Source: Bacteriovoracaceae bacterium (GTDB taxonomy: Bacteria > Bdellovibrionota > Bacteriovoracia > Bacteriovoracales > Bacteriovoracaceae). Taken from it: 64,000 bases of DNA. The notes under the pieces were generated by a model. That model saw only the letters and a list, made by a program, of their open reading frames with translations, made no database searches and was not told where the DNA came from. The stretch spans positions 192,001 to 256,000 of the forward strand of contig JBLWTJ010000002.1 of the NCBI GenBank assembly GCA_048270185.1, written 5' to 3'. Position 1 is the first letter of the stretch, and every line of letters starts with the position of its first letter. A program made the position numbers and the translations under genes. Shown one piece after another: positions 13,508 through 53,317 of the stretch.

Positions 13508-13524
13508 TAGTCATTTCCTATTAA

Positions 13525-36883: not shown

Positions 36884-38245
36884 TCACTGTAAGAAACTTG
36901 AGCTTTTTGCATCAGATTGAATTCGATAAAGTAGTGACTTTGATAATTGTAGCTCACGGGCCACTTTATTTATCTTGCCATCACATTCATTAAGAGTTGA
37001 TTCATAGACTTTTGTTTCGATTAATTTGATCAGACTTTGCAGGCCATTATTTCGCGCAAACTCAATCATCTCTTCAGTAACAAAGTTTAAATTATTATCA
37101 ATTTTCGACTCATTATTCTCATTGTTTAAGATATAACGAGGTAAATCAGATAGAGTAATTAAACCTTTCTTTCCAGCACTAATAGTTAGGACAAGATTCT
37201 CTAGCTCACGAATATTTCCTGGCCAGTCGTATTTATTTAAAATCTCTTCGACTTCATCATCAAGAATAATTTTCTTTGATGAGTTCGATAGGAAGTGATC
37301 AAACAATAAAGTTATATCTTCTCTTCTCTCTTTTAGGGATTTAATCTTTAATTCAAAACCATTTATTCTAAAGAAAAAGTCTAAGCGAAATTTTTCTTCT
37401 TTAATAAGTTTTTGAAGATCATCACATGTAGCTGTGATTAAACGAAAGTCACTTGTTTCAACTTCAGTTGAACCAACTTTACTGAATGACTTCTCTTCAA
37501 TGGCCTTAAGAAGCTTCTTTTGGATATGGACAGGTATCGTTCCAATTTCATCTAAGAATAAAGTTCCACCATTAGCACGAGAGAGAAGTCCCTCTTTATC
37601 ACTTGAGGCTCCTGTAAAGGCACCTTTGACGTGACCGAATAATTCACTTTCAATTAGGTTCTCTGATAGTTCAGATAAATTAACGTGGACAAAATTTCCA
37701 GCGTCACTCGATAACTCATGTAATGCTTTAGCGATTTTTGTCTTACCAACACCAGTTGGCCCAGTAATTAAAATTTTATGCTCGCGAGGTCTTGGAAGAT
37801 CTCGAAGGTAAGAGATTTTAGAAATAAGCTCTTCATCGTTAGTAATATACTTAGTTGCAAAGAATGAGCGAAACTCATCTTCATCCATCGAGTTAAGAAT
37901 ACCACCAACGTGCTCTTTTAAGTTCTCTAAGAAGTCCTGCTTTACAAAATAATGATCACATCCTGCTTTATAAGCAGCTTTGATAATATCTTTAGAATCA
38001 TTACCTGAGAGTGCGATAGATGTAATATTCTTTTCATTGGCCTTTTTGATAACTTCAATCCCTTCAAGCCTTTCATTTTCAGATAAATCAAGATCAGAAA
38101 ATACGAAGGAAATATTTTGAGTCTTCAACATATGTAAGGCCACTTGAAGGTTTTGGGCCTCAACAATTTGCCCATATTCTTGTAATTGGCTTACAAGATT
38201 AAATCTAAAATACTTATCATCTTCGACTACTAATATCTTCTTCAT
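36884..38245 (-). CDS. Sigma-54-dependent response regulator (NtrC family enhancer-binding protein)
   Basis: REC (VVEDD, FSDL), GPTGVGKT, ESELFGHVKGAFTGA, LFLDEIG, WPGNIREL, Fis-type HTH. Confidence 0.95.
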   Translation of the reverse strand: MKKILVVEDDKYFRFNLVSQLQEYGQIVEAQNLQVALHMLKTQNISFVFSDLDLSENERLEGIEVIKKANEKNITSIALSGNDSKDIIKAAYKAGCDHYFVKQDFLENLKEHVGGILNSMDEDEFRSFFATKYITNDEELISKISYLRDLPRPREHKILITGPTGVGKTKIAKALHELSSDAGNFVHVNLSELSENLIESELFGHVKGAFTGASSDKEGLLSRANGGTLFLDEIGTIPVHIQKKLLKAIEEKSFSKVGSTEVETSDFRLITATCDDLQKLIKEEKFRLDFFFRINGFELKIKSLKERREDITLLFDHFLSNSSKKIILDDEVEEILNKYDWPGNIRELENLVLTISAGKKGLITLSDLPRYILNNENNESKIDNNLNFVTEEMIEFARNNGLQSLIKLIETKVYESTLNECDGKINKVARELQLSKSLLYRIQSDAKSSSFLQ

Positions 38246-38268: not shown

Positions 38269-38330
38269 TATCTAATTAATACATAAAATTAAAGGCTTAT
38301 GTAAAAAGTATCGGTATTTTATTTAATAGA

Positions 38331-38347
38331 CAGTCGAAAAAAGACTG
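38331..38347. promoter_or_regulatory. GTC-N7-GAC palindrome upstream of NtrC-like gene
   Basis: CAGTC-GAAAAAA-GACTG. Confidence 0.45.
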
Positions 38348-38367
38348 CTTAAATACCCTAAATTACA

Positions 38368-38742: not shown

Positions 38743-38753
38743 AATTCCCTCAA

Positions 38754-39503
38754 TTATTCGAATTTAAAATTCTTTGTTATATTTCTATTCTCTTCCATTA
38801 TATATGTTTGAAACTCATCAAATCCAATATAGTCCATAAGAGTTGGTCGTGTTTCATCACCTATAATTTTAATCTCTTTATTGATATTAAGATATAGAGA
38901 TCGATCTTGATATGTATTTGTTAGATTGACTTCTTTTACTTTTGGAAAGAATTGTAAAAATCTAAAATCGGCAATATCAGTGTCAGAGAGGTCAAGGCTT
39001 CTCTTTCTTTTTATCTTTCGATAAACAGAGTAACATGAAGAGCGATCATAGCTTTTCCCTAGAGCAGCAAGAGCATGCTTTTCAAATTCATTGAGATTAG
39101 ACATTCTACAATAATCAAGAAAATTTGCTTCACGACATTTTAAGTTGGTTGTATCAACAGCTAGATTTTTAACAATAATAACTTGTCCTCGGCGTGTATA
39201 ATTTGCAGTCGATTCTTCAAAGAATGATTTTTCAAAATCTCTCTTTTCCCACTCCCCTGCAATATATGTATCATTGATGACAGTATTAACACTTCCGATA
39301 TCTGTATAAGTTTCGTAATCCTCAAGTTCAGCACTAATCTTGACTCCAGAGCAAACAAGCGCCTTAGCTGTTTTATTTTCTATTGTAAGAATGACCTTAT
39401 TATTTTCTTCTCCTGTTTTCAGGTTGAAGTTCACCCCATCCAAATCAGAAGCATTTGTATTTACGAATAAAATAAATAAAAGAATTGTTACTAAGTTTTT
39501 CAT
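38754..39503 (-). CDS. Secreted protein with short leucine-rich-repeat-like C-terminus
   Basis: Signal peptide from MKNLV; SLDLSDTDIADFRFLQFFPKVKEVNLTNT. Confidence 0.6.
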   Translation of the reverse strand: MKNLVTILLFILFVNTNASDLDGVNFNLKTGEENNKVILTIENKTAKALVCSGVKISAELEDYETYTDIGSVNTVINDTYIAGEWEKRDFEKSFFEESTANYTRRGQVIIVKNLAVDTTNLKCREANFLDYCRMSNLNEFEKHALAALGKSYDRSSCYSVYRKIKRKRSLDLSDTDIADFRFLQFFPKVKEVNLTNTYQDRSLYLNINKEIKIIGDETRPTLMDYIGFDEFQTYIMEENRNITKNFKFE

Positions 39504-39504
39504 A

Positions 39505-39924
39505 TTATCTCTCACACTTAATTGAATTTAACACCTTAAAAGGTTTGCTCATTATTGAGCGATACTCGATTTTTTCAAGAAGGTTATTTGAATCAAAGTT
39601 AATTACCAAACTATCAGTTTTCCTTAAACTCTGTTTTCCAGAAGTCTTCTTGAGAAGTAAATTTGTTACAACTTCATGATCAGCTTGACCAAGAGTCATA
39701 CTTAATCCAGCACTATTTCCTCTAATACGATCAACAATTGTCAACCATACACTATTATTAATATCACCAATATGATCAATATAAATGTCACAATTATAAA
39801 GTTTTATTCTTCCTCTATATTCTGACAAGAAGTGATCAAGGACCTGTTTGTTACCTGAAGAAAAGCTCCATTCACTAGCGTTAGTATTCATCATAACAAA
39901 CAGTAACAACAAAAAAGTTTTCAT
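39505..39924 (-). CDS. Secreted hypothetical protein
   Basis: Signal peptide TNA; ATGA overlap with upstream gene. Confidence 0.7.
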   Translation of the reverse strand: MKTFLLLLFVMMNTNASEWSFSSGNKQVLDHFLSEYRGRIKLYNCDIYIDHIGDINNSVWLTIVDRIRGNSAGLSMTLGQADHEVVTNLLLKKTSGKQSLRKTDSLVINFDSNNLLEKIEYRSIMSKPFKVLNSIKCER

Positions 39925-40565
39925 CGATCATCCCTTTCAAAAATTAATTCCAATTCTGGACGATAAACTTCAATCCCTAAATTAATCATCGAATTCCCAT
40001 GGCATAGGTCTAGGTCTTTTAAGTTCTTAATAGGACAGTTTGAAACAATTAATAATTCAAGTCTATCCTGCATACATAGTTGCCAGTTTGAAATCAGACT
40101 TAGAACTCTTCCTTCTTCAACAATTAGCGGTCTAACATTTTCTAGTGCAAGATTAATTTCATCACCAATTTTAAGGGCATAAAAGCTATTCTTATCAATT
40201 GATTCAACCGGAAGCTCAATCAGAATATTTTTTTCTAATACACCACGATATGAAAGTTCCACTTGCTCTTTCAAATAAAGACTCAAGTACTGGTCATAAG
40301 CGATTGAAAAATCATCTATCCCACCTAGATTATTTGCATATGTAAACTCTTTAACTTGTGAAACAATTCTCTTAGCTTGTTTTTGTCTATGAGATATTGC
40401 TTCGCAAGAAATAAACTTATCAGCAGATATAACATGACCAACATTATTGCTAATACTTCTTCTTGCATGCTTTAAGACATAGAGAAGGTTTTCATCAACA
40501 ATATTGGCCATACCAGATGTCATGCTAAATATAGTAAATAAAGAAATTACAATCGCTTTCAACAT
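39921..40565 (-). CDS. Secreted hypothetical protein
   Basis: Signal peptide GMA; GAGG RBS; 4 Cys. Confidence 0.7.
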   Translation of the reverse strand: MLKAIVISLFTIFSMTSGMANIVDENLLYVLKHARRSISNNVGHVISADKFISCEAISHRQKQAKRIVSQVKEFTYANNLGGIDDFSIAYDQYLSLYLKEQVELSYRGVLEKNILIELPVESIDKNSFYALKIGDEINLALENVRPLIVEEGRVLSLISNWQLCMQDRLELLIVSNCPIKNLKDLDLCHGNSMINLGIEVYRPELELIFERDDR

Positions 40566-40570
40566 GACCT

Positions 40571-42151
40571 CTATTCTTCAATAACAAAAGTTGCAGTACC
40601 GTAATGAGAGTATGCTCTCGTCTCTTTTACTTCTTCAGTACTTTTATAATTAAACTTTCTTAGAAACTCACTTGTTTGTGTTGCACTTCCAAATAATGAA
40701 TTCGAAAGATCAAGCGCCATTGCAGCATACTTACAGTAAACAGATGGACAGTCTTTACTCTTAAGCATATCTGAGCCTACAGACGCCCCGTTTCTTCTTG
40801 CTTCAGGAAGAGTGATTGCAGGGTTAGAACGAACATATCCTGTAGAGATTTCTTCAATAGTCTTAGCAACAAAGTCATTCATTATTTTACTCTTTTCTTC
40901 TTTCGAAAAATTATCTCTTGGGTCTTCTGAGTAGAAATGTACTTCTAAATTACCAGCAATATTTGTCGTCTCTGATATTGAGTTAATTGACTTTGTCTTA
41001 AATAAGCCACCTTTTGTCGTATGCTTCTTTACTTTCTTATAAATCTCACTCTTGTTATAAATAAGTCTGTAGTTATTATTAACAGCAAGGTTATACTTAT
41101 ACATTGAGTTAACATTGAAAACAGCAGTTAAATCTTTGTTAGCTTTTTCACCTTTTAGTAGCATGCAAGATGATAGTGCTGAAATATTAACACTACCACT
41201 TAAAGACTCACCGAAAACAATACTTCTAAATCCTGGCGTAACCTCATTGTCTTGATCCATAATTCCTGGAATACTAATATCTTTTTCAATTTCAGAAACT
41301 AGACCACCGATATCGTTAACAGCAAACTGAATCGAGTTATCAACAGGCATTCTCTGAAGATTAATTCCTCTATTATAACGCTTGAATTCATTAAGAAGTT
41401 CATAATGTTTATTTTCAAGTATAACTTTTACTGTCCCACCATTACGTGATCTCATATCAGCGAGGTCAGCATTCATTTTTTTAAGTAATACTGAAATTAC
41501 ATCAAGAGTATTTGATTCACGTGTCGTTAGTTCTTCAACTTGCATTTTAGTTGCGACTAATTGCTCATTTAAGCTTGTTTCCGCTTCAAAGAGACCTTCA
41601 AGTTTTGCATTAACCTGTGCCATCGAACTTTCAATTTTCACAAGTGTATTTTCTAATTGCATTATATTGTAACGATTTAGATCCTCATTCTTTTTCAAAG
41701 CTACAATTTGAGTTTCAACTAGAACTTTCTTACCCTGAAGATCTATTTTCTTCTCTAGCAACTTAATACGAGACACAGTGTATTTCTGTAGACTTGTATT
41801 CGTACGAACAAGAGTTTGCATTAAAAGCTTTAATTGTCTTTTCTCATAAACAGAAAGCTCTGCACTATCTTGAATTTGATCAATCTCTTTACTGTATTGA
41901 TCTAACAATAAGTAAACACCTTCACACTCTGCTTCCGTTACGAGAGAATTGAATGCATCCACTCTCACAGTATTTGTTTTTGGGGGAAGAACATAGGCAG
42001 TCTTACAAGACTGATCCCAAAAATACCCCGTCGATCCTTTTGGTTCACGTATCTTTTGTGAATCACACTTCGTATACTTATTTGGAATATTGGCCAATAC
42101 TGGAGCAGATATTAAAAATGCTGCCACTGCCATCTTTTTACTAAAATTCAT
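40571..42151 (-). CDS. Secreted hypothetical protein with long coiled coil (paralog of 43187..44617)
   Basis: Signal peptide; DQSCKTAYVLPP; heptad-rich middle; GESLSG; KGGLFKTKS. Confidence 0.8.
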   Translation of the reverse strand: MNFSKKMAVAAFLISAPVLANIPNKYTKCDSQKIREPKGSTGYFWDQSCKTAYVLPPKTNTVRVDAFNSLVTEAECEGVYLLLDQYSKEIDQIQDSAELSVYEKRQLKLLMQTLVRTNTSLQKYTVSRIKLLEKKIDLQGKKVLVETQIVALKKNEDLNRYNIMQLENTLVKIESSMAQVNAKLEGLFEAETSLNEQLVATKMQVEELTTRESNTLDVISVLLKKMNADLADMRSRNGGTVKVILENKHYELLNEFKRYNRGINLQRMPVDNSIQFAVNDIGGLVSEIEKDISIPGIMDQDNEVTPGFRSIVFGESLSGSVNISALSSCMLLKGEKANKDLTAVFNVNSMYKYNLAVNNNYRLIYNKSEIYKKVKKHTTKGGLFKTKSINSISETTNIAGNLEVHFYSEDPRDNFSKEEKSKIMNDFVAKTIEEISTGYVRSNPAITLPEARRNGASVGSDMLKSKDCPSVYCKYAAMALDLSNSLFGSATQTSEFLRKFNYKSTEEVKETRAYSHYGTATFVIEE

Positions 42152-43187
42152 AACTCACCTCTCCTATTTCAACTTTATTTATAATTGTTTTAAATTTGAT
42201 TCCCATTCCAGGAGTAACTTTTTTATCTGAGTACTTTCTAACTACTGATTCGATAAAACTTGGAGTTAAATCATTGAATCCAAATTTTCCATTCTGCTCA
42301 AAAAAGCTCCTATAGAAATCGAGTCTTCCTTTCTCTCCAAAACGATTAAGTATATCTCCTTTGAATAGAGCTCTTTCGCCTTTCATCATTTCAGCAGTTT
42401 TAAAGCCTGCCTCAAACATATTTTTTGGAGATGTTAGTTCATTTAGTTTCTTAAGTTTATTTCCATAAGACTCAACATCTTCAGACTTAATCCAATCTGT
42501 AACAACTGTTTGACTAAAGTGCTTCCCGCTAACATTGAATGCTAACTCAACATCTTTTTCAGCAATGTCACAGGCTAATTCAAAAAGAGAAGTATCAAAT
42601 TGAACTTTTCCTATTTTTAAATCATCAGCAGTTCTTGCATAAAAGTAATCTTCATCAAATCTCTTAAGATATACATTTAAGTAACTCTCAGGAAATAATT
42701 TCAGAATCGCACTATTCTTCACTTCAACATCAAAGAAAGATTCATTAAAACTAACCTGATTATTAATCCTCGAAAGAACAGATTCCGGATTAACGTTTAC
42801 ACTTAAAGCAAGTCTCTTCAAGAACCCGACAGAAGCGAAGCGTTCTCCATATGGATAAATAACCACTTTATTCTTTCCTAGTTCATAAGAGTTTGTTTCT
42901 CCAGAAAGAGTAAAAGGTTCTAAAATCTCACGACGAATTTGTGCAAATTCTTTCGCATCCATTTTAGATACATCTCTAAATCTTAGCTCCTTCTTATAAA
43001 GACCTTTAATTTTTCGACATAACTTCTTTTCTAGTGTAATGCTATCAACTACAATTTTCGATTCATACTCATTAGCAAACTCTAGATTTAAATTATTATT
43101 ATGATCTTTTTTAAATTCATAACCATCGACACTGATCACATTGGCAATTGCCGCTAGGTTCAGAAGAGTTAATAAAAGTGCTCTCAT
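42141..43187 (-). CDS. Secreted hypothetical protein
   Basis: Signal peptide AIA; overlaps both neighbours. Confidence 0.75.
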   Translation of the reverse strand: MRALLLTLLNLAAIANVISVDGYEFKKDHNNNLNLEFANEYESKIVVDSITLEKKLCRKIKGLYKKELRFRDVSKMDAKEFAQIRREILEPFTLSGETNSYELGKNKVVIYPYGERFASVGFLKRLALSVNVNPESVLSRINNQVSFNESFFDVEVKNSAILKLFPESYLNVYLKRFDEDYFYARTADDLKIGKVQFDTSLFELACDIAEKDVELAFNVSGKHFSQTVVTDWIKSEDVESYGNKLKKLNELTSPKNMFEAGFKTAEMMKGERALFKGDILNRFGEKGRLDFYRSFFEQNGKFGFNDLTPSFIESVVRKYSDKKVTPGMGIKFKTIINKVEIGEVSYEF

Positions 43188-44617
43188 TATTTACTCTCCT
43201 TTACAAATCCCATCGTTGTAATTCTAAGAACAGTTTTAATAAGCTCTGATTTCTCATTATATGAGTAAGCAAAATTCTTCGCACTTGTTTGAATTAACTC
43301 CCCTCTACCTTCGACTGCAACTTTCACAGTATAGCTTTGGTCCCAACACTTACGACTTTTTCTAAAAAAACTTCTCTTTGTACGACAAATTCTCTGAGTT
43401 CTCGTTTGCTTAATATGTGGATCATTTGGAATATCAAGATCTTTAATAATAAGCTTACTATCTGTTGGTGTGGCAATTGTTGAGATTAGCTTTAAAACGA
43501 TATCATCTAGAATTAAGCCTTTTAAATCTTGAATCTCTTCGTATAGTTCACCCGACGTTCCTGCTGAATCTTCATCCTGGATCGTAATATCAATTGACTG
43601 ATCTAAATTTGAACTTTCAAAAAGATCAACAACTTCTGAAACCTTAAATGTATTCTTTGTTTTAGTTAGTTTATTTAATTCATTTATTACTTTATCGACT
43701 TTTACTTTTACCGAGTACTTCTTACTCAACTCTACTGGATACCATATTGTTGAGTTAGCAACCAAGTAAGTTGATAAATTTGAATTAAGCGCCTCTCTCT
43801 TAGCGCTATCTAATGTAAACGCTTCACCATTTTTCTTCTTTAGAATATTTACGATAGGACACACACCAGACATATTAAGTTGAATAAATCCTGTTAAACT
43901 CTCTCCCATTGCAAAAGTGTTCTCACTTTCAGCTGCAGCATAACCAATTCTTTCAGAAATATTTTCAAGACTTGAAAGCTTTACTCCTGGTACATTAAAA
44001 GAATGAAGAGCACCTGTACTACTAAGTCCAATTAAGTCATCTTCTGACTTTAGTCTCACACTTAGAGCATTTGCAACAAGAGGCATCTTCTTAATTGTAA
44101 GCCCTCGGCCAGTGTTTGCTTCACGGTATGCATTTACTAGTTCAGTCCACTCGTGTTCAAAGTGTGCCTTACCTTCAAAGATAACCATCTTAGAAAATTG
44201 ATCCTTCTCCATCTTTGCTTGAGGCAAGGCCTTATTTATATAAGTAAGAATATTCATTTCAGAATCAGTTAGAGTTGCAATACGAGATTCTAAATCACGT
44301 TGTGTTTCAACAAGATTCTTCACGCGATTAAGTGATGTCGTATAAGAAGAACATAAGTTACTTTCTGCAAGAATATTATATGAGTCAAAACGAGCAATCC
44401 CATTTCTTGGAGGTAAGACAAATACTGTCTTACATGACTTATCTGTTAAGTAATCAGAAGAGTGAGATGCCACTGCTCCACCTGCACCAGGTTTTACAAT
44501 TGCCAGATTACATTCTTCAGTATTTCCCTCATAAGGAAAGTTTGCAAAACCAAATTGCCCAATAACTAAAGAACTTAGAAGCAGGCCTTTCTTTAAAAAT
44601 TCATAATAAGTATTCAT
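43187..44617 (-). CDS. Secreted hypothetical protein (paralog of 40571..42151)
   Basis: Signal peptide GFA; DKSCKTVFVLPP; GESLTG; GGGAG RBS. Confidence 0.8.
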   Translation of the reverse strand: MNTYYEFLKKGLLLSSLVIGQFGFANFPYEGNTEECNLAIVKPGAGGAVASHSSDYLTDKSCKTVFVLPPRNGIARFDSYNILAESNLCSSYTTSLNRVKNLVETQRDLESRIATLTDSEMNILTYINKALPQAKMEKDQFSKMVIFEGKAHFEHEWTELVNAYREANTGRGLTIKKMPLVANALSVRLKSEDDLIGLSSTGALHSFNVPGVKLSSLENISERIGYAAAESENTFAMGESLTGFIQLNMSGVCPIVNILKKKNGEAFTLDSAKREALNSNLSTYLVANSTIWYPVELSKKYSVKVKVDKVINELNKLTKTKNTFKVSEVVDLFESSNLDQSIDITIQDEDSAGTSGELYEEIQDLKGLILDDIVLKLISTIATPTDSKLIIKDLDIPNDPHIKQTRTQRICRTKRSFFRKSRKCWDQSYTVKVAVEGRGELIQTSAKNFAYSYNEKSELIKTVLRITTMGFVKESK

Positions 44618-44668
44618 ATTTATCTCCCTAGCAATTATTTGCTCTCATTTATTTAGTGACTTGTTAAA

Positions 44669-44685
44669 AGCAGGGAGTGTGCCAA
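44669..44685 (-). promoter_or_regulatory. Sigma-54 (-24/-12) promoter for leftward operon
   Basis: Minus strand TTGGCAC-ACTCC-CTGCT: GG-N10-GC spacing exact, ~50 nt above ATG 44617. Confidence 0.75.
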
Positions 44686-44734
44686 TTTTTTAATTAGTTA
44701 AATGATTGAAACTATGTAAGTTTGAATCTCAAGC

Positions 44735-44786
44735 CAGTCCTTTTCAGACCAAATAAGTCCAAAATAATCTAGTCGACCAAGACTGA
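44735..44786. promoter_or_regulatory. Candidate enhancer (UAS) palindromes between divergent promoters
   Basis: CAGTC-N7-GACC at 44735-44750 and AGTC-N6-GACT at 44772-44785. Confidence 0.45.
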
Positions 44787-44820
44787 TTATGTAATTTTAA
44801 TAGTTTAGAACATTTCTTTC

Positions 44821-44837
44821 TTGGCACTCAGATTGAA
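44821..44837 (+). promoter_or_regulatory. Sigma-54 (-24/-12) promoter variant for rightward operon
   Basis: TTGGCAC-TCAGA-TTGAA: perfect -24, TTGA instead of TTGC at -12; ~40 nt above ATG 44879. Confidence 0.6.
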
Positions 44838-44878
44838 TAGATAAGCTTACTAATTATGATTAATTCGAGGAGAAAGAT

Positions 44879-45757
44879 ATGAAGACTAAATTTATGAGTA
44901 TATTATTGGCCACAAGTTGCCTCTTAGTACTAGGCCAAGTTCATGCTATAACTTTCACAAAAACTGAGGCTAGAAAAGTTTGTAAAGAGATAAGAGATAG
45001 CCAGATCAGTCAGACATCACAGTGTAATTCTGATGTAAATACTAACTACAATATCATTGAAGAACTTACTAAAAGCTACCTTCATGGCCTTGACCTTTTA
45101 GATGAACGACAAAAAGAGGCCCTCCAATACCTAGAGTATAACTCACAGGCCCAAGGTGAATATCTTGAATTATCAAAGTCGAAAATTGAACTAACGGATC
45201 AGTTAAAAGGCCTTGAGGAAAATATTCAATCAACTTTTGAGTACTATAACAAGTTGATTGAAGGTATTTCACCAAACTTCTCTAATCGCTATGCCACAGA
45301 ACTTCTACAACAATATTCAAAAGAGAAGAAAACAAGAGTAAGCCGCCTAGAGAGCGAAAGAGAATCTCTAAGTTCTCGCCTTACTTCAATTAGAGAAAGG
45401 CTTGCACAACTTAATATTGAACTTGCTCCATATCGTGAAATTATCAATCAATACAACTTACAGATAAGTGAAATAAAGTCACAAACTCAGCAAATTCTAA
45501 AAAGACTTGAAGAAAATAAACAAACAAATAGGAGTCATGATACGACAGGATTCATTGGAAGATCCCTATTTGACTTTGGCCATGGAGATGACTTTGATAT
45601 GCAAGCATGTATAAGTTTGCATATGTCTCTTAACAAGTTACCTGAGTTTGATTTACCACGTCTGCCTAATATACCAAGAGGCCCTTGGGGAACAGATGGA
45701 CCTGGCATCAATAACCCTTATGTGAAATCTTTACAAAAAGAATCATATTCTAGGTAG
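44879..45757 (+). CDS. Secreted coiled-coil protein with Pro/Gly-rich tail
   Basis: GAGGAG RBS; signal peptide VHA; long heptad region; Cys at both ends. Confidence 0.75.
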   Translation: MKTKFMSILLATSCLLVLGQVHAITFTKTEARKVCKEIRDSQISQTSQCNSDVNTNYNIIEELTKSYLHGLDLLDERQKEALQYLEYNSQAQGEYLELSKSKIELTDQLKGLEENIQSTFEYYNKLIEGISPNFSNRYATELLQQYSKEKKTRVSRLESERESLSSRLTSIRERLAQLNIELAPYREIINQYNLQISEIKSQTQQILKRLEENKQTNRSHDTTGFIGRSLFDFGHGDDFDMQACISLHMSLNKLPEFDLPRLPNIPRGPWGTDGPGINNPYVKSLQKESYSR

Positions 45758-45836
45758 TTAGAGATGACGTGAGAAAAAAGAAATTCAAACGATTATTAAT
45801 TTATGATAACAATAATTAAAATTTAATGAGGGATAT

Positions 45837-46247
45837 ATGAAAGATAAAACAATTATCGGACTAGCAATTCTAACAGCAACTTTTGGAGCTCATGCGCAAG
45901 ATGCTGATACACAGAATAAAGATGATAAGTCTAAAGACTTAAAACAAATCTATACCCAACAAGAAGACTTAACAGTTGATGAAGAAGTCGAAATTAAAAT
46001 TCTCGAGCACCTTGAAGAGCAAGGTATCTTAATTGAAGACCTTACAATCCAAGAGATTGAAGAACTTCAGATCCTAATGAAGAAAATTGTACTTAGAGAT
46101 CGCTTGCTAATAAATTCAAGTATTCGTTGTATGATAAGCCCAGATGCTGCAAGCACTAATATTAGATGTCTTAGTGCAGAAAGAAAACTCGAAGAGAAAT
46201 TAAAAGAGCAGCTAAATCAAATCAATCAAAGCTTTAACCGCCGCTAA
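45837..46247 (+). CDS. Putative RiPP precursor with Sec signal peptide, acidic leader and two IRC repeats
   Basis: GAGG RBS; AHA signal cleavage; EDLTIQEIEEL; NSSIRCMIS and STNIRCLS; immediately upstream of YcaO. Confidence 0.65.
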   Translation: MKDKTIIGLAILTATFGAHAQDADTQNKDDKSKDLKQIYTQQEDLTVDEEVEIKILEHLEEQGILIEDLTIQEIEELQILMKKIVLRDRLLINSSIRCMISPDAASTNIRCLSAERKLEEKLKEQLNQINQSFNRR

Positions 46248-46256
46248 TTAGTATTA

Positions 46257-47426
46257 ATGAAAATATTAAATCAAAGAGAGTCTCTTGATGGCCTTGTCGA
46301 CAGATTTGCAATCCAAGGCCAGGCTCTTTCTGATGATACAATTCTCAATATAAAAGAATTCCTAAATAACAATACCGATAGACTTACAATTGAAAGAGTT
46401 ATTTCGGATTTAATACCTCACGACTACTATCTGACACGAACATCATGTTACTATCATGGTACACAAATAAATGGTTTTTCACTCTCACATAAAGAAGAGC
46501 CTCACAAATCACTGCTTGAAGCCTATGAGAGGTACTTATTTTTAAACTTAGCTCTACTTGCAGATATTAATAATGAATCAAACAATGCATCTTCATACCT
46601 AAAATTGCTTAATGTTGAATCGATGGATCTCTCAAAGACGAATGTCATCAATTTAAACTCGCTAGAGGAAGTTAGTCTTGAACGCTATTTACTTGGTCTT
46701 CAATCAAATTTCTCATCCTTTACTTCAAATGGATGTGCAGTACATACATCAGTACTAAACTCAACCAAGGCATCGATCTTCGAATTATTAGAAAACCATA
46801 TCATTCAAGAGCATATCATGCTTGATATAGCACCAGTTGAAGTCCATGTAGACGAGCTTATCCCCACTTCAATTTCAGCGAAACTTAATGAGCATGGATT
46901 TGAGATAAAGACCCTTTGCTTTACAAATGGCCAATGGCCTACTTTTTTAACGTTCATTCTTAATAAAGACTTAACAGGTCCCTATCTATTCTACGGCATT
47001 GGCTGCCATGAAGATTTAGATCAAGGTTTACAAAAATCAATTAGAGAAGCTTTCATGTGTTGGTGTATCGAGCTTCCTCAGATTAGCGCATTAGATGAAG
47101 TCGACTTAGGACACGATATCTCTAAGTCATCAAAATTCTATCATTATCAAAATAGTGAAGTCATGCAAAAGGCATGGTTTGGTATGCCTATTAAAAGTAT
47201 TGAAGAGATTAAACTTCAATACCCAACCCAAAAGTTAGCGGCCGTTATTAAAGAAATGGACTTTTTAATTCTGCCAATTCTGGCCCAAGGAGAAAAAGGA
47301 CAAACCATTGTTTTTACAAAGGTTTTTTCTTGTAAAAATCACCCAAAATCCTACTCAACTCCCCCCTATCTACGAATTCATGATACATTAAATAATATTG
47401 ATAAATTAAAAAATTACCCTTTCTAA
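46257..47426 (+). CDS. YcaO-family cyclodehydratase (standalone, divergent)
   Basis: LEAYERY, FTSNGCAVH...SIFELLENH, YGIGCH.....QKSIREA; C-terminal YPF. Confidence 0.8.
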   Translation: MKILNQRESLDGLVDRFAIQGQALSDDTILNIKEFLNNNTDRLTIERVISDLIPHDYYLTRTSCYYHGTQINGFSLSHKEEPHKSLLEAYERYLFLNLALLADINNESNNASSYLKLLNVESMDLSKTNVINLNSLEEVSLERYLLGLQSNFSSFTSNGCAVHTSVLNSTKASIFELLENHIIQEHIMLDIAPVEVHVDELIPTSISAKLNEHGFEIKTLCFTNGQWPTFLTFILNKDLTGPYLFYGIGCHEDLDQGLQKSIREAFMCWCIELPQISALDEVDLGHDISKSSKFYHYQNSEVMQKAWFGMPIKSIEEIKLQYPTQKLAAVIKEMDFLILPILAQGEKGQTIVFTKVFSCKNHPKSYSTPPYLRIHDTLNNIDKLKNYPF

Positions 47427-48272
47427 GTGAGAGATATGAAAGTTGGAAGTATATTAAAGTATAGCAACACAGAGCTATCCTTAGTTGAAAAATTACCTTC
47501 TGGTTTAAATAAGCTAGTATGGTCTAAGGACACTCAGCTACTGATCTTTGACCAAGAAGACAATTATCTTCTACTGAATCCAAGAGAAGTTTCTGGTATG
47601 AGACTTTTTATTGAAGGTCAAAAAACGACACTAATTAAACTATTAAAAGACCAAACTCTTTGCTATCTCATTCAAGGTATTGCTAAAAGCTTCCAATGTC
47701 GATTTATACAAATCCAATCAGAGCAGCTTGATTTAAAAGATCACCTTGATAATGGCTTCTACTTTTCAAATATTATATTAAAAAAAGATTTATCTAAACC
47801 AATCGAAGAAATCAGTTCATCACTAATTGAGAGAAAACTCGATAAAAAATATCAAAATGAGTATGCTTTAAATGAATTTATGACGAGAGTGTCAATTCCA
47901 GGTGGAACACATTACAAGGATGATTTCTACACACTGATTAAGGCAGAGTATAAGGAACTAATCGAACTCGATATCGATGGACTAGACTTTATTGAGTATT
48001 CTTTAAAGGAATATGGCCATGATACATATTATATATGGATGATTAACCACCATACCAAAACTGCTCTACGATGTTTTTCATGGGTGGCACCAAAACTTAG
48101 AGGACAAAGTATATCGAGTCGTGCAAATGAAGAAATCAATAAGAGCTTATATGCTAAAGGCGTTAAGCAATGTCTATCATTTACATCTTTCACAAATATA
48201 GCACAGGTAAGAAGTAGTTTAAAAGCTGGCTACAAGTTAGACCGAATTGTTATTTTAAAAGAGGTTAACTAA
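47427..48272 (+). CDS. GNAT-domain acyltransferase
   Basis: C-terminal WVAPKLRGQSIS (motif A) and NIAQVRSSLKAGY (motif B). Confidence 0.7.
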   Translation: MRDMKVGSILKYSNTELSLVEKLPSGLNKLVWSKDTQLLIFDQEDNYLLLNPREVSGMRLFIEGQKTTLIKLLKDQTLCYLIQGIAKSFQCRFIQIQSEQLDLKDHLDNGFYFSNIILKKDLSKPIEEISSSLIERKLDKKYQNEYALNEFMTRVSIPGGTHYKDDFYTLIKAEYKELIELDIDGLDFIEYSLKEYGHDTYYIWMINHHTKTALRCFSWVAPKLRGQSISSRANEEINKSLYAKGVKQCLSFTSFTNIAQVRSSLKAGYKLDRIVILKEVN

Positions 48273-49660
48273 TGAGTCGTTTAATTCTATCAACTTTACT
48301 CATTCTTATTTCAATTAATACTCTTTCTAAAGATATCTACTTAAAAAGTGATATTAAAATTACCGGATTTGACCCAGCAACCCTAAAGTATGCAGAGGAA
48401 TGGGAGTTATCCCCAACTGTATATGAGACACTAATTAAACCAATTGCCTCAGAAGGTTTCCTTAGGCCTTCTCTTGCTGAAAGTTGGAAATACAAGAGCG
48501 GAACACTAAAGTTCAACCTTAGAAAAGAAACAAGATTTTCTAACGGTGACCCAATCAATGCCAAGGCAGTTAAAGAGTCATTCCTACGTTACTTACTACT
48601 TGATAAGAACAAGGAATCTATTCTTTACAATTGTTTAAAAGAGGCAAAGAATATTAAATCAATCACTGAATCTCATCCTTCTATTACGATTCAATCGGAA
48701 TATAATATTTCTTTTAAAATTAAAGAAGACTGTAAGGATACTTTTCTAAAAGAGATCGCTCAACCGATATACGGTATTGTCTACACAAAGAACTTAAAAA
48801 AGGACCTTTCATTAACTACTCCTTCGATTGTATCAGGAGCTTTTAACTATAAATTAAATAACGATGATCTTATCCTGTATCGTAACAGCAATAACTGGGC
48901 ATGGTTTGAGAATAAATCCAAATTACAAAAGATTATTGTCTCAAAGAATAGAAGTAAGAATACGAATGTTTTAAGAACAGGCTCTATTGAAGTATTCAAT
49001 GAACTGCAAGAGTCAAATCAAGATTTCATTCTTAGTCTTCCAAATATCACTTGGTATCTAACATACGAATGTAAGAACGATTGTGACCTAAAGAAATCAA
49101 TAATAGATGAACTAAAATATAATCTACCAAAAATCATTAAAGAAAAGAGCTATTCAAATGTTTTCAATACACCAGCAGATTCTTTCTTTCCAGCAAGTTT
49201 TAACTGCCCATCAAAAGAGGTTAAAAAGGTTGCTATAAAGAAAAAGGGAATATGTCTTAAACTTGACTACGGATCGAGAAGAACAAATGAAGCTGTCATG
49301 GGATTCACTGATAAAGCATTAAATGATCTCGGTTATAAAACTAATAACTGTGAGAATCCAAAGGTTTTCAAAATATACCCACAATTTCTCCATGATGAGA
49401 TTATACCAACATTAGATTTCTTGGCCAATACAGTCATGTCAATCAACAATATTGTAGAGATCAACAAGTATCTTCCAAATCAAAACAATAAAGTTACCTA
49501 CAATCGAGGAAGGCTATGCACAGAGTTCAGTAAGTTAAACTTTACTCCACTCTATCACTCACGCATTGCTTTTTTCTATTCAGATAAACCACTAAAGAAA
49601 ATATTCTTTAAAAGCGGTGGATATATTAGTTTAATTGATCTGCCATTTGTTGAGTTTTAA
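48272..49660 (+). CDS. Orphan family-5 (OppA/DppA-like) solute-binding protein
   Basis: Signal peptide; DPA, VYETLI, PSLAESW, FNLRK..FSNGDPINAKAVKESF. Confidence 0.8.
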   Translation: MSRLILSTLLILISINTLSKDIYLKSDIKITGFDPATLKYAEEWELSPTVYETLIKPIASEGFLRPSLAESWKYKSGTLKFNLRKETRFSNGDPINAKAVKESFLRYLLLDKNKESILYNCLKEAKNIKSITESHPSITIQSEYNISFKIKEDCKDTFLKEIAQPIYGIVYTKNLKKDLSLTTPSIVSGAFNYKLNNDDLILYRNSNNWAWFENKSKLQKIIVSKNRSKNTNVLRTGSIEVFNELQESNQDFILSLPNITWYLTYECKNDCDLKKSIIDELKYNLPKIIKEKSYSNVFNTPADSFFPASFNCPSKEVKKVAIKKKGICLKLDYGSRRTNEAVMGFTDKALNDLGYKTNNCENPKVFKIYPQFLHDEIIPTLDFLANTVMSINNIVEINKYLPNQNNKVTYNRGRLCTEFSKLNFTPLYHSRIAFFYSDKPLKKIFFKSGGYISLIDLPFVEF

Positions 49661-49661
49661 T

Positions 49662-50684
49662 ATGAAGATTACCGAGAATGATTATTTTTTAGCAAAGAAG
49701 TATAAGAAGCAAGATAGCTTCTATATAAGCCTATCTCGTAAACGCCCTACTTTAGCTGGTGCATTTATTGAAATGCTAGAAGTTCTTTCACAGAACTTAA
49801 TTAATAAAGAGTGTGATTTTCTACTAATCGACAACGACGATCAGATTCTTTTAAAGGATTTACAAAATATTGGATTCAACACTTATGGTTACTTAGCAGA
49901 TGATAAATTAATCTCACTAAGTGACATTAACCTTATTGCACATACAAAAAAGATACAGAATATTGTTCTAGTTGTCGGAAGTAAGATTAAGCATCCTTCA
50001 ATTGAGAACTCAAAAGAGTTTATTTCATTTATTAGAAACAGAGAGCGTTATTTAACAAATCTTACAGAATTAAATCCAAATATTTATAAGGATACAGAGA
50101 ATTTAAAATCTTTTAACCTACAAGATAATGATAAATTAAGAGTTGATAATAGCTTCTCATCTCTATCAATGAAAAGAACCTCGGCAAATGGATTTAACTC
50201 GCCACTAGAAAGTAGTGAAATCATCCAGCTTCTTAACGACAGTCTTTCATATACTCAAAGTAATTCCATAAAAAGACCAATTGCTTGTGCAGGAGGACTT
50301 GGAAATTTCAAGGCCTATATAACAAATGGTGATAATAATGTCGAAATCTACACTCCAGAAGACTTAAACATCAAGCAAACGAATATCGAATGGAATAATC
50401 TTTTAATGGACCAGATAGCAAGTAATCTTGAGACCTTTAATGGATGTAAAACTTGGCTAATTCTAAGTGTGGACCTAGTTCAATTAAGGAGTAAATATGG
50501 AGCAAGAGCTTATCGATTTGCTCTAATGGAAACAGGCGGACTTCTCCATCAACTACATCTATCGGCTACTTCATATGGATTTGACTTTCGTATTCTAGGC
50601 GGTTTTGACGACAAGGTAGTAGAAACTTTACTACACATAGGTAATGAAGAAGTTGTCACAGCAATATGTGGACTAGGAAAGTAA
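49662..50684 (+). CDS. SagB/McbC-type FMN-dependent azoline dehydrogenase (nitroreductase fold)
   Basis: RPIACAGGL; SKYGARAYRFALMETG...LSATSYG...ILGGFDD; ATG 49662 one base after upstream stop. Confidence 0.85.
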   Translation: MKITENDYFLAKKYKKQDSFYISLSRKRPTLAGAFIEMLEVLSQNLINKECDFLLIDNDDQILLKDLQNIGFNTYGYLADDKLISLSDINLIAHTKKIQNIVLVVGSKIKHPSIENSKEFISFIRNRERYLTNLTELNPNIYKDTENLKSFNLQDNDKLRVDNSFSSLSMKRTSANGFNSPLESSEIIQLLNDSLSYTQSNSIKRPIACAGGLGNFKAYITNGDNNVEIYTPEDLNIKQTNIEWNNLLMDQIASNLETFNGCKTWLILSVDLVQLRSKYGARAYRFALMETGGLLHQLHLSATSYGFDFRILGGFDDKVVETLLHIGNEEVVTAICGLGK

Positions 50685-50690
50685 CAACTA

Positions 50691-52799
50691 ATGAAAAGAA
50701 TTGATAAGATCTTCATCATTCTCTTTTGCTTTATTATCGTAGTGTTAGGATTCTACTCAAATTATGCCTATAGCTTAATTCAAGAAGAAGCAAAGCAAGT
50801 TGCCATCAAACAAATGATTGCTAATTCTAATGTTATAACTTCATCTATCCAAAATGATGTATTTTCAAGTAACTATATTAACGCCTGGTACTCAGCATCA
50901 CGTTCAATCAAAAACATAGATGGTGCTTACTTCATTCTAGCGGATATCGACGGTAACGACCTAGTCGATGATTTAGGCTCTCAACTCAAGTATAAGAAGC
51001 TTACAGAAAATAATAAATTTAAAAAAAAGGAAATTAACAAGTCTTCTTATTATTTAGTTTCAAATGACTTTAAAAACCTCATTGTAAAAGATCACTTTAT
51101 TAGTAACCTCGACGGGAAAAGTAATTATTCTATTTCATATGTCTATCCGCTCTCTTTCTTAGAAGCGAGTATATCAAAAATCTCATATATAAATTTAGCT
51201 TTAGCTGCAATATTAATTGGAATCATTGCTCTGTATTTTATAATTATTCGTAAGCTCTTTAATAATAGCTTCACTGCTCTTGGTAATGGAGTTGACCATA
51301 TTATTAAGGGGGAAGAAATCACTAATGCTGAAATCAACGAAGTACTTGAAGATCATTTCGAGGCGCGCACACTCCTTGATAATTTCAAGAAAGATTATGA
51401 TTTAACTAAGAGGAAGTTACAGGAAGAAGCAAAACTATCGGCCCTTTCTAAAATTGCAACACAAGTTGCCCATGATATTCGTTCCCCTCTATCTGTATTA
51501 GAAATGTCTATTTTTGAAGAGGAACAAGTTAGTAATAAGAATATAATCCAAAGTGCGATTCAAAGAATTAATGATATTGCCAATAATTTATTAAGTGAGA
51601 ACAGGACTAATACTAAAGGTCAGGAAGAGATCTATCTTCCATATGTTATTGATTCGATTATTACCGAAAAACGCTACCAATATTCAAAATATCATCAACT
51701 AGAAATTAGATTTGTTAACAATTGTGACAATCTTAACCTGTTTACAAGGTTTAACGATATCGAGCTAAAGCGAATTCTTTCAAACCTTATTAATAACTCG
51801 GTCGAGAGCTTCGCAAACAGACAAGGTATTATTGAAATTATCCTCACTGACTCTCAGAATGATATCTTCTTAGAGATTAAGGACAATGGTCACGGTATTG
51901 AAGAAGACATCCTAGATCAACTACGCAAGAATCCATTTAGTCACAAGAAAGAAGGTGGAAATGGAATAGGCCTTTCTCATGCGATGCAAACAGCTCAGAA
52001 GTATCAAGCCAGTTTAGCACTAGACTCGCAAGTAGGACATGGAACAACAATTCGCCTAACACTTAAGAGAACTTCAGCACCAAGGTGGTTTAGCTCTTCA
52101 ATTAACCTTTCCAAATTTGATAATATAATTGTCTTAGATGACGACTACTCGATTCATGAGCTTTGGAATAAACGTTTATCAGGCCTTAAGAGAGATTATC
52201 ATATTATCAATTTAAATGACCCATTAGAGCTATCAGCAACTCTTTCTAAACTTGATATTAGTAAGACTTTCATTATATGTGATTACGAATTTGTACATGA
52301 GTCGCTAGACGGTATTGATACCATTATTGAAAATGATATCTCTAAGAACTCTATTCTTATTACAAGTCACTTCAATGAAGACGACCTTCAAGAAAGATGT
52401 CTTAAGAACTCAATAAAGATGGCACCTAAAAATTTAGCGAGATTAATTGAGCTACATGAATTTGGTAATATGAGTAAGGGAAAACAGGTCGTCTATCTTG
52501 ATGATGATCGCCTTTTAACTCATGCCTGGAAAACGAAAGCAACTAAGAATGGTGTGGATTTACTCACTTTCAATAATGTGAATGACCTACTTCAATCAGC
52601 AAGTGAGATCGATCAACAGGCGACCTTCTATATTGACTATAGTCTAGGTGAGAATGAATTAAGTGGAGATAAAGTAATTGAGAAGTTACAATCTCTAGGC
52701 TTTACTAAATTTTATTTGGCATCTGGTTACACTAGGGACTACTTTGACGAACTTGGAATTAATATCGAAGTCGTAGGTAAAGAAGCCCCTTGGGTATAA
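50691..52799 (+). CDS. Hybrid sensor histidine kinase with periplasmic domain and two C-terminal receiver-like domains
   Basis: Two TMs; QVAHDIRSPL; NLINNS, DNGHG, GNGIGL; IVLDDD and VYLDDD modules. Confidence 0.9.
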   Translation: MKRIDKIFIILFCFIIVVLGFYSNYAYSLIQEEAKQVAIKQMIANSNVITSSIQNDVFSSNYINAWYSASRSIKNIDGAYFILADIDGNDLVDDLGSQLKYKKLTENNKFKKKEINKSSYYLVSNDFKNLIVKDHFISNLDGKSNYSISYVYPLSFLEASISKISYINLALAAILIGIIALYFIIIRKLFNNSFTALGNGVDHIIKGEEITNAEINEVLEDHFEARTLLDNFKKDYDLTKRKLQEEAKLSALSKIATQVAHDIRSPLSVLEMSIFEEEQVSNKNIIQSAIQRINDIANNLLSENRTNTKGQEEIYLPYVIDSIITEKRYQYSKYHQLEIRFVNNCDNLNLFTRFNDIELKRILSNLINNSVESFANRQGIIEIILTDSQNDIFLEIKDNGHGIEEDILDQLRKNPFSHKKEGGNGIGLSHAMQTAQKYQASLALDSQVGHGTTIRLTLKRTSAPRWFSSSINLSKFDNIIVLDDDYSIHELWNKRLSGLKRDYHIINLNDPLELSATLSKLDISKTFIICDYEFVHESLDGIDTIIENDISKNSILITSHFNEDDLQERCLKNSIKMAPKNLARLIELHEFGNMSKGKQVVYLDDDRLLTHAWKTKATKNGVDLLTFNNVNDLLQSASEIDQQATFYIDYSLGENELSGDKVIEKLQSLGFTKFYLASGYTRDYFDELGINIEVVGKEAPWV

Positions 52800-52801
52800 A
52801 T

Positions 52802-53317
52802 TTACTTCTTAATTAAACTCTTTAATTTATCAGCAACTTTATTTGCATCAAGCATTGGATCAACATCGCGATCTAGTGCTGCAATTTTTAAATTTGGATC
52901 AATGATAAAAGTCCATCTCTTAGAAACGTTAAAGACTGCCATCTTCGCTCCAAACTCTTTTGTTACCTTTCCATCTTCATCTGATAAAAGATCAAAAGTT
53001 AAGGCATGCTCTTTGTGGAACTCGGCCTGATCTTTTACTGAGTCAGTACTAATCCCGTACACTTCTGCACCAAGGTTTCGAATAACTTTAATACTATCGC
53101 GAAATGCACAAGCTTGTTTTGTACATCCAGGAGTTCCGGCTTTTGGATAAAAATAAAGTACTGTCCACTTCCCTTTGCGTGTTTCTATATTAAAATCTAC
53201 ACCTTTGTGATTCTTAACGATAAATCTAGGAACTTCTTGTCCTGTTTCAACATCTTTTGCATATGCATTTACGAGTAAGAGACTCATTGCAACAAAAAAC
53301 CATTTTACCACTTTCAT
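52802..53317 (-). CDS. bcp: Peroxiredoxin BCP/PrxQ, exported
   Basis: YFYPKAGTPGCTKQACAFRD; signal peptide AYA. Confidence 0.9.
   Translation of the reverse strand: MKVVKWFFVAMSLLLVNAYAKDVETGQEVPRFIVKNHKGVDFNIETRKGKWTVLYFYPKAGTPGCTKQACAFRDSIKVIRNLGAEVYGISTDSVKDQAEFHKEHALTFDLLSDEDGKVTKEFGAKMAVFNVSKRWTFIIDPNLKIAALDRDVDPMLDANKVADKLKSLIKK

Follow-up and report, generated by a model that had tools for sequence, protein, structure and literature searches.

What would a YcaO enzyme modify when the gene directly before its own encodes a protein bound for export? This question is raised by the window, a stretch of 64,000 nucleotides from a Bacteriovoracaceae bacterium (NCBI GenBank assembly GCA_048270185.1, contig JBLWTJ010000002.1, positions 192,001 to 256,000 of the forward strand), all positions below being counted from its first letter. 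A plus-strand gene at 45837..46247 encodes P0001, a predicted exported protein of 136 residues, and stands at the head of an operon that continues, in overlapping or abutting genes, with a YcaO enzyme, a tandem-GNAT-like protein, a solute-binding protein (SBP) of the SBP_bac_5 family, a SagB/McbC-like dehydrogenase and a hybrid histidine kinase. The original prediction, made from the sequence alone, took P0001 for the precursor of a ribosomally synthesised and post-translationally modified peptide (RiPP) with an acidic leader, twin cores and a helical follower. We propose that the adjacent YcaO takes P0001 as its substrate, and we give this proposal an even chance. Its position and features support the substrate reading, while leader, twin cores and follower are terms of interpretation. 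The precursor claim holds as regards the place of P0001 in an operon with YcaO and SagB-like enzymes, a counterpart in a second genome and a rule followed by related gene cassettes; as regards kinship to the peptides of those cassettes, the evidence is suggestive.

A predicted exported protein ahead of a YcaO gene

The frame of P0001 opens at the first ATG downstream of an in-frame stop, runs uninterrupted for 136 codons and has a Shine-Dalgarno-like GAGGG run a few bases 5' of its start; 9 bases separate its stop from the start of the YcaO gene. Hand reading of the n-, h- and c-regions predicts a Sec-type signal peptide at residues 1-20 (45837..45896), composed of the n-region MKDK, an uncharged h-region of 13 residues, TIIGLAILTATFG, and a c-region AHA/Q with cleavage at 20/21. 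Residues 21-75 are strongly acidic, with 18 D/E against 5 K/R, and include the segment EDLTIQEIEEL. The protein has two cysteines, C98 and C111, which are 13 residues apart in the near-identical contexts NSSIRCMI (46113..46136) and STNIRCLS (46152..46175), the second of which is without a counterpart in the head protein of the second genome and in most cassette peptides described below. The two Ile-Arg-Cys triplets are written with different codons (ATT CGT TGT and ATT AGA TGT), and residues 93-112 contain 7 S/T/C. The features named in the original prediction all stood on re-reading. The probability that two cysteines share the same two preceding residues is p ~0.0075, or ~7e-4 with a hydrophobic residue at +1, both values being post hoc and derived from the composition of P0001.

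The helical tail that had also been proposed fared less evenly: the tail is rich in K/E/Q as described, and its helix appears in a low-confidence model. The AlphaFold2 single-sequence model (mean predicted local distance difference test, pLDDT, 58.3, which is low) places helices at residues 32-44, 49-61, 71-100 and 104-134, with a break at 95-103 where pLDDT falls under 50; because of this low confidence, a helical follower is plausible, not firm. P0001 matches no Pfam or NCBIfam family, and its top score in the ESM Atlas (0.80) lies under the level at which a match exceeds a mere lead.

A second copy of the operon and a cassette found across the phylum

A profile search with the YcaO family over 401 genomes of the phylum returned one strong match (8.3e-46), on contig C233 of an Oligoflexia metagenome-assembled genome, G286. 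This genome, from a different family of the phylum, carries the identical six genes in identical order. Its head protein, read from the contig, has 101 residues, a signal-peptide-like N-terminus, an acidic middle and the end ...KAGSIQPTCL, matches no Pfam or NCBIfam family, and is encoded directly before a YcaO of 404 residues. For the other four proteins, phmmer E-values between the window and G286 are 8e-21 (GNAT-like protein, 302 residues in G286), 8.5e-42 (SBP), 2.4e-36 (SagB-like dehydrogenase) and 5.2e-99 (hybrid kinase). No further six-gene copy was found in 75 genomes of the family of G286 or 127 of its class, and phmmer with the cluster proteins recovered the six-gene set at no locus with distant, generic YcaOs besides G286.

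The same search gave weaker matches to 74 open reading frames (ORFs) of about 300-370 residues in 64 other genomes, which retain the YcaO motifs on alignment; 73 of the 74 loci were retrieved, G379:C239 being represented only by the short locus L021. A homologous kinase lies downstream on the same strand at 45 of these 73 loci, an adjacent SBP was labelled by phmmer at 34, and both occur at 31. The resulting cassette has two gene orders, small-SBP-YcaO-kinase and YcaO-small-SBP-kinase. By Pfam, loci L076 and L091, the latter from the window's own genus, comprise, in this order, a sigma-54 response regulator, a small ORF, SBP_bac_5, YcaO and a kinase. Across the phylum, 40 cassettes have a small ORF of 47-205 residues with a Sec signal directly 5' of the SBP gene; these ORFs, which have signal-peptide-like N-termini, were picked with a crude scoring function of our own, six being added and one removed by hand.

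The cysteines of the cassette peptides are concentrated at the extreme C-terminus. Once three near-duplicates had been dropped, 37 of the 40 peptides were counted: 27 have a cysteine within the last 15 residues, in the penultimate position in 12 of these, and in three (four before the near-duplicates were removed) the only cysteines are distant from the end. Cysteine accounts for 5.6% of the last 15 residues against 1.0% elsewhere and 1.18% in the background, an enrichment whose naive binomial P of 3e-14 is overstated, since related genomes are not independent. Counted from the cysteine, G or S predominates at -4 and -3, the residue at -2 is one of T, S, P, A and G, and that at -1 is I, T or R, as exemplified by the tails GGSICW, GGTICF, SSSGIRCGG, SGMRCGG, AGSRCY and HQPTCITA. 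The original prediction was to be abandoned if homologues lacked the Cys/Ser/Thr motif; the check was run on the 40 cassettes, and the motif was not found to be lacking. The peptides themselves are highly divergent, 41 sequences splitting into 31 BLAST groups although the enzymes beside them can still be aligned, and the 38 of 40 that were scanned (near-duplicates L117 and L137 being left out) gave no Pfam or NCBIfam match.

Within the window's genus the cassette SBP is confined to the one genome that has a cassette YcaO, and because of this the cassette behaves as a unit. A search of the window genome (G000) with the G009 YcaO as query revealed no second cassette.

Other arrangements occur among the YcaO-like loci, at 25 of which neither an SBP nor a kinase was detected. 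A SagB-like gene lies near the YcaO at one of the 73: at L098 (G396:C1) a YcaO frame of 485 residues is followed by a SagB-like frame of 275, with neither SBP nor kinase, which looks like a more conventional YcaO-dehydrogenase pair. In a second recurrent context (L104, L136 and L138), likewise without SBP or kinase, a conserved frame of 481-484 residues begins 0-4 bases after the YcaO frame. At L079 a second kinase of 692 residues (10343-13879, minus strand; 3.5e-108 to the G286 kinase), with a 484-residue protein downstream, lies beside the cassette on the opposite strand, so kinase paralogues also exist without a YcaO.

The enzymes and the sensor of the operon

The tight packing of the operon, together with the 9-base gap between P0001 and the YcaO gene, leaves no space for another small ORF. 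The enzyme itself, P0002 (46257..47426, plus strand, 389 residues), is a divergent YcaO-domain protein (Pfam YcaO PF02624, 7.9e-10, with 39 bits where the cut-off is 25.7) whose profile matches in the PDB are the MJ1094 YcaO (3.3e-8) and McbD (7.2e-5). A word-index search with P0002 returned the query alone; with HMMER, run over all of 1.84 billion representatives, 12 further proteins reached E <= 1e-3. Of the relatives, whose sequences come from ENA, Logan and JGI/IMG, P0003, P0004 and P0005 are 36-40% identical to P0002, and P0006-P0008 24-27%. In the alignment of this seven-member family E88, E91, R92, G159, H163, E176, E179 and E264 are invariant, including the ExxER and ExxE motifs, and the C-termini read YPF, HPF or HPY. 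We take the invariant acidic residues to be those that bind ATP and Mg, and the ending presumably corresponds to the proline-rich C-terminus of azoline-forming YcaOs.

The next gene (47427..48272, plus strand) encodes a protein of 281 residues that is 28% identical to its syntenic G286 counterpart. Its AlphaFold2 model is of low confidence (pLDDT 53.5); the best Foldseek matches are the tandem GNATs 7q3a (1.5e-8), VipF, MshD and FemX, with template-modelling (TM) scores of 0.35-0.41, and in Pfam its G286 homologue is weakly matched by Acetyltransf_1 (0.0096). The protein itself was assigned to no family and probably has a tandem-GNAT acyl or aminoacyl transferase fold. It is followed by the SBP (48272..49660, plus strand, 462 residues, Pfam SBP_bac_5 8.3e-19), which has a hydrophobic N-terminus and NCBIfam matches of the NikA/OppA-like kind under their cut-offs; among the neighbouring genes Pfam recognised neither a permease nor an ATPase, and in this sense the SBP is an orphan. 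The nitroreductase-fold dehydrogenase of SagB/McbC type (49635..50684, plus strand, 349 residues) begins at a TTG at 49635, with an alternative ATG at 49662, scores above the Pfam Nitroreductase cut-off (1.1e-10) and matches 3eo7 (3.4e-11) and McbC (7.8e-4) in the PDB.

The operon closes with a hybrid sensor histidine kinase of 702 residues (50691..52799, plus strand; Pfam HisKA and HATPase_c), in which about 135 residues lie between two hydrophobic stretches, near 5-27 and 165-190. Its residues 471-702 (52102-52799) match the kinases of 22 cassette loci at E-values as low as 8e-35, while the N-terminal parts of the G000 and G286 kinases found no match in the cassette loci. The C-terminal third contains two receiver-like stretches, starting ...VLDDDYS... 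and ...YLDDDRL..., with no Pfam match there; judged from its sequence, it may be an undescribed domain pair.

Hydrophobic N-termini are present on P0001 and the SBP and absent from the YcaO, the GNAT-like protein and the dehydrogenase. Pfam recognised no exporter or leader peptidase in the cluster, in agreement with what had been predicted, and no immunity gene; the want of a recognised transporter is consistent with the proposed export by Sec without a dedicated one. A novel peptidase is nonetheless conceivable, because a 292-residue protein and seven minus-strand proteins in the neighbourhood carry no Pfam family. Neither DUF692 nor DUF2063 was matched by Pfam among the cluster proteins, and TfuA was not found in the window genome, which is 95.9% complete. 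That genome has a second, canonical YcaO gene unrelated to the locus (C1:1004841-1005836, L147; PF02624 1.1e-67, in a frame of 731 residues).

The genomic setting

Across about 37-53 kb of the window the G+C content is 0.31-0.35, against 0.38-0.44 in the flanks, and a P0002-type YcaO is missing from all 12 other genomes of the genus and all 236 others of the family (E <= 1e-20). For these two reasons, the locus has the look of an acquired island, about 16 kb long (window about 37000-53000).

Upstream of P0001 lies the 292-residue protein (44879..45757, plus strand; ORF and translation, no Pfam family), a coiled-coil protein with a signal peptide and a Gly/Pro-rich C-terminus. Its membership of the system is uncertain: the conserved genes of G286 start with the peptide gene, and just 672 bases precede that gene on the G286 contig. 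A divergent operon on the minus strand (38368-44617) encodes seven proteins of 124, 253, 139, 214, 526, 348 and 476 residues, which have no Pfam match at E <= 0.01 save one weak MinC_N match; the 476-residue protein has a signal-peptide-like N-terminus. The last gene of this operon (36884..38245, minus strand) encodes an NtrC-type sigma-54-dependent response regulator of 453 residues (Pfam Response_reg 3.5e-13, Sigma54_activat 7.3e-54).

The 261-base divergent region between the two operons carries two sigma-54-like sites, one 5' of the plus-strand operon (TGGCACTCAGATTGAA, 44822..44837, plus strand, 10 of 11 consensus positions, with GA for GC at -12) and one 5' of the minus-strand operon (TGGCACACTCCCTGCT, 44669..44684, minus strand, GG-N10-GC, 9 of 11 positions); the background of stricter sites is 0.012 per 250 nt. 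The divergent operon may be the regulon of the window kinase, and the presence of the regulator, both sites and both operons in one island would allow a feedback loop. Against feedback as a general rule, a GG-N10-GC site was found within 250 nt upstream of none of the 40 cassette small ORFs, and none upstream of the G286 peptide gene, for which reason we do not claim a general positive-feedback sigma-54 promoter in the cassettes.

Kinship of P0001 to the cassette peptides

P0001 resembles the cassette peptides in several respects. Its 136 residues lie inside their range of 47-205, and like them it is small, bears a Sec-type signal peptide and heads its gene set; the YcaO, the orphan SBP_bac_5 protein and the kinase with the shared C-terminal domain stand in one operon in the window, as in the cassettes. 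Its c-region is similar to that of the L076 peptide (...YGAHA/EN), and the contexts SSIRCM and TNIRCL agree with the cassette preferences at -1 and -2. In single BLASTP comparisons, residues 4-88 align with the L125 peptide (E 4e-4), and residues 8-102 align with almost the entire L103 peptide, across a 15-residue insertion (E 0.008); the latter alignment sets LEHLEEQGILIE on FEVLRERGILNE and the SSIRC of Cys98 on the C-terminal SSGIRC of L103. A helix motif, hydrophobic-x3-hydrophobic-x3-G-hydrophobic-hydrophobic, recurs in 19 of the 40 cassette peptides, at 0.73 per 100 residues against 0.086 in background frames, and is absent from the G286 head protein. A by-eye regular expression for this motif finds a resembling segment at residues 53-70 of P0001 (KILEHLEEQGILIEDL, 45993..46046, plus strand), and a hidden Markov model built from the 19 cassette instances ranks the P0001 frame first among the 623 frames of the window. 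Taken together, the sequence comparisons are suggestive of P0001 being a divergent, C-terminally extended relative or an analogue of the cassette peptides.

A number of results weigh against this kinship and against the substrate reading as a whole. When the BLASTP hits are scored against the set of 41 sequences, the E-values are 0.018 (L125) and 0.32 (L103), and signal peptides supply part of the score. The helix expression was designed by eye with P0001 in view, the model built from it gives P0001 an E of about 0.5-1.4, and a profile of 13 hand-picked cassette tails gives it 5.8, with six other window frames better than E 2.2. The cysteines of P0001 lie 38 and 25 residues from its C-terminus, outside the last 15 residues that characterise the family, and the distance from the motif G to the cysteine is 36 residues against about 13-17 in the cassette peptides (hand count); it is 19 if counted from a second, G-less copy of the motif suggested by the L125 alignment. 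P0001 has no BLASTP similarity to the G286 head protein, with which it shares position and features alone, and a word-index search of 5.8 billion proteins, among those of 74-238 residues, returned the query alone. Seven of the 37 cassette peptides are Cys-free and end in G/S/T-rich tails, and the helices predicted around the cysteine pair of P0001 (with low confidence) would also suit a disulfide-bonded hairpin. As regards the enzymes, P0002 scores 43.7 bits against TIGR03604, the SagD-type cyclodehydratase of thiazole/oxazole-modified microcins (TOMMs), far from the cut-off of 219.25 and over residues 151-271 alone; among solved YcaOs the nearest in the profile comparison is MJ1094, which forms a thioamide; the dehydrogenase reaches 52.8 against TIGR03605 SagB, where the cut-off is 78.4; and no E1-like or Ocin-ThiF-like partner and no RiPP recognition element (RRE) was found among the cluster genes by Pfam, NCBIfam and, for the 281-residue protein, Foldseek. 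Finally, the six-gene form is known from two instances only, among the roughly 900 genomes searched.

Discussion

We propose the following pathway for P0001 as a YcaO substrate. Modification must precede Sec export, because export signals are borne by P0001 and the SBP but by none of the modifying enzymes. While P0001 is still in the cytoplasm, the YcaO would use ATP to activate the amide before Cys98, and perhaps that before Cys111 or nearby Ser/Thr residues, so as to close a thiazoline, which the SagB/McbC-like flavoprotein would oxidise to a thiazole. This course from cysteine to thiazoline and thiazole is favoured in the six-gene form because of the McbC-like dehydrogenase, the lack of TfuA and the Cys-focused tails of the cassettes; cassettes without a dehydrogenase would halt at the azoline or perform other YcaO chemistry. 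With no E1-like or RRE partner in evidence, recognition of the substrate would fall to the YcaO itself and might involve the helix motif. An acyl or aminoacyl group may be attached by the tandem-GNAT-like protein. The unfolded chain would then leave via Sec, signal peptidase would cleave after AHA, and the mature product, a helical protein of ~13 kDa or some fragment thereof, could serve as the ligand of the orphan SBP in the periplasm or outside, the SBP passing the signal by way of the hybrid kinase to the island's sigma-54 regulator.

Several terms of the original prediction lack support or have to be recast. Twin cores are not a conserved trait, as the G286 head protein has one Cys motif and most cassette peptides have one, at the extreme C-terminus; a long follower is unusual in the cassette family; and the recurrent element is the helix motif at residues 53-70, not EDLTIQEIEEL, which had been likened to a leader motif. 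Because no leader peptidase is evident, leader, core and follower may be the wrong frame for P0001 altogether, and the product may stay a protein of ~13 kDa. The constant presence of an orphan SBP of a peptide family, a kinase and a sigma-54 regulator suggests a product that is sensed, not a weapon such as a classical linear azole antibiotic. In place of an antibiotic, a modified and exported ligand of the SBP-kinase pair is the likely product.

Four other explanations have to be weighed. P0001 could serve the SBP and kinase in the periplasm as an unmodified ligand, adaptor or regulator, its cysteines forming a disulfide and the YcaO and dehydrogenase acting on some other target, for instance the SBP, the kinase or a small peptide of metabolite-like kind. 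The cassette small gene is always directly 5' of the SBP gene, whichever side the YcaO occupies, and the seven Cys-free peptides among the 37, the modelled helix-break-helix around C98 and C111 and the missing RRE or E1-like partner would all fit such a role; in the window and in G286, however, the gene that directly follows the peptide gene is that of the YcaO and not that of the SBP. A concentration of cysteines at a G/S/T-rich extreme C-terminus, often as the sole cysteine of the mature protein, is also unlike a disulfide role, and a dehydrogenase of the McbC kind would be left without an obvious function if there were no azoline substrate, so that we consider this explanation unlikely, while taking it seriously. 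It is rather improbable that P0001 is an unrelated secreted orphan and that the real substrate lies elsewhere, for instance in the 292-residue secreted protein or an unannotated peptide. P0001 has no homologue, no similarity to its G286 counterpart and no significant profile test, and small proteins with signal peptides are numerous in the AT-rich genomes of this group, as the many such candidates show; yet G286 has a protein of the same features at the same position, 40 cassettes obey the same rule, and the 9-base gap in a tight operon leaves no room for another ORF.

That the locus is a classical antibacterial cluster for a linear azol(in)e-containing peptide (LAP), with a toxin exported by Sec and with the SBP and kinase serving regulation or self-protection, is what the gene logic of a YcaO, a SagB/McbC-like dehydrogenase and an adjacent ORF bearing Cys, Ser and Thr would call to mind, and a rare island that none of 12 other genomes of the genus carries, in a lineage generally known as predatory, would suit it. 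Such a cluster would be expected to hold an immunity gene, an ATP-binding cassette (ABC) exporter or a leader peptidase, none of which Pfam recognised; the mature protein of 116 residues, predicted to be helical and highly charged, offers just two heterocyclisable cysteines; and the 40 cassettes keep the binding protein, the kinase and often the sigma-54 regulator, mostly without a dehydrogenase (SagB-like in 1 of 73), which makes an antibacterial role improbable in our judgement. We regard it as scarcely credible that the P0001 ORF is not a genuine gene: the orphan sequence, its biased composition and its low recognition by a protein language model could be so read, but by our own estimate ~0.3 frames of 136 codons are expected by chance in the whole window at ~34% G+C, and this one has a Shine-Dalgarno-like run, a canonical signal peptide, an operon position and a counterpart in G286.

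Known systems resemble the locus in different parts. With the LAP/TOMM systems (microcin B17 with McbBCD, streptolysin S with SagBCD) it shares a YcaO and an McbC-like dehydrogenase beside an ORF with cysteine in a Ser/Thr-rich context. It differs from them in having no E1-like or RRE partner, in enzymes that fall under the NCBIfam TOMM cut-offs, in a candidate substrate of 136 residues with a Sec signal and two cysteines only, and in a conserved orphan SBP and kinase where a leader peptidase, ABC exporter or immunity gene would be sought, none of which was recognised. Because of the unmet cut-offs and the missing C or F partner, the locus falls outside the curated TOMM families. YcaOs that stand alone include the bottromycin type and the archaeal MJ1094, responsible for the thioglycine in methyl-coenzyme M reductase. 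The window resembles them in the absence of a fused or adjacent E1-like partner and in that the substrate may be a whole protein, and differs from them in that no TfuA was found in its genome, a dehydrogenase is present and the substrate is predicted to be exported; the presence of the dehydrogenase argues for azoline chemistry.

The LuxP-LuxQ and TorT-TorS systems are sensor kinases that depend on a binding protein. As in these, the window encodes a periplasmic SBP without transporter genes beside a membrane sensor kinase; the ligand, in contrast, would be ribosomal, enzyme-modified and encoded in the same operon, and the SBP belongs to the peptide/nickel family 5. To the Bdellovibrio-like cassette the locus is close in its Sec-signal Cys protein, YcaO, orphan SBP_bac_5, kinase with the same C-terminal domain and sigma-54 regulator, whereas its YcaO belongs to a separate, longer subfamily (389-404 residues against about 295-373), the dehydrogenase and the tandem-GNAT-like protein are additions, the gene order is another, and the Cys motif is internal and doubled, with 25 further residues after it.

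For export, the nearest likeness is to the bufferins, a precedent established by experiment, in which a heterocycle is made from cysteine of BufA in the cytoplasm by the multinuclear non-haem iron oxidase (MNIO) BufB with its DUF2063 partner BufC, Sec export following (PMC11626156). Bufferins are copper-binding and controlled by a sigma/anti-sigma pair, and Sec-exported RiPP precursors are explicitly said to be rare (PMC11626156). The window would share with them the formation of a Cys heterocycle in the cytoplasm, Sec export and a small periplasmic protein; it differs in enzyme class, having a YcaO and a flavoprotein, and in its conserved partners, an SBP and a kinase together with a sigma-54 regulator. 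As it encodes no MNIO, it is not a bufferin system. By analogy, the chemistry of the locus may come closest to that of a linear azole system, its export to that of bufferins and its sensing to that of systems of the LuxPQ type.

A search of titles and abstract openings, in which subscription journals were not covered, found no published description of a YcaO with a Sec-signal substrate, an SBP and a kinase, and the Sec-exported RiPPs that it turned up were modified by MNIO enzymes, not by YcaOs. What is new here is the six-gene variant, found in 2 of about 900 genomes, with its added dehydrogenase and tandem-GNAT-like protein and its doubled internal Cys motif. That the whole cassette family represents a new type of signalling circuit has, in our view, a substantial chance. 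More speculatively, it is possible, although we hold it doubtful in so complete a form, that Bdellovibrio-like bacteria possess a family of peptide-signalling circuits in which a C-terminal Cys/Ser/Thr tail is modified by a minimal, partner-less YcaO, and the product is exported by Sec and read back by SBP, kinase and sigma-54 regulator. The window would then hold a rare, horizontally acquired upgrade, in which the dehydrogenase and the tandem-GNAT-like protein make a thiazole-bearing, possibly acylated signal of ~13 kDa with two sites, and the divergence of the peptides would amount to a pherotype-like diversification.

For further work, the 40 cassette peptides with their common tail logic and the two six-gene variants form a comparative set, and the window would be a compact test case, with six genes, one substrate and two cysteines. 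If the chemistry is absent, the locus is still a conserved signalling module that includes a YcaO of another role. If the product is indeed modified by the YcaO, exported by Sec and coupled to its own SBP and kinase, it would extend YcaO chemistry to exported proteins and would point to peptide-based sensing in Gram-negative predatory bacteria, where very little is known of it.

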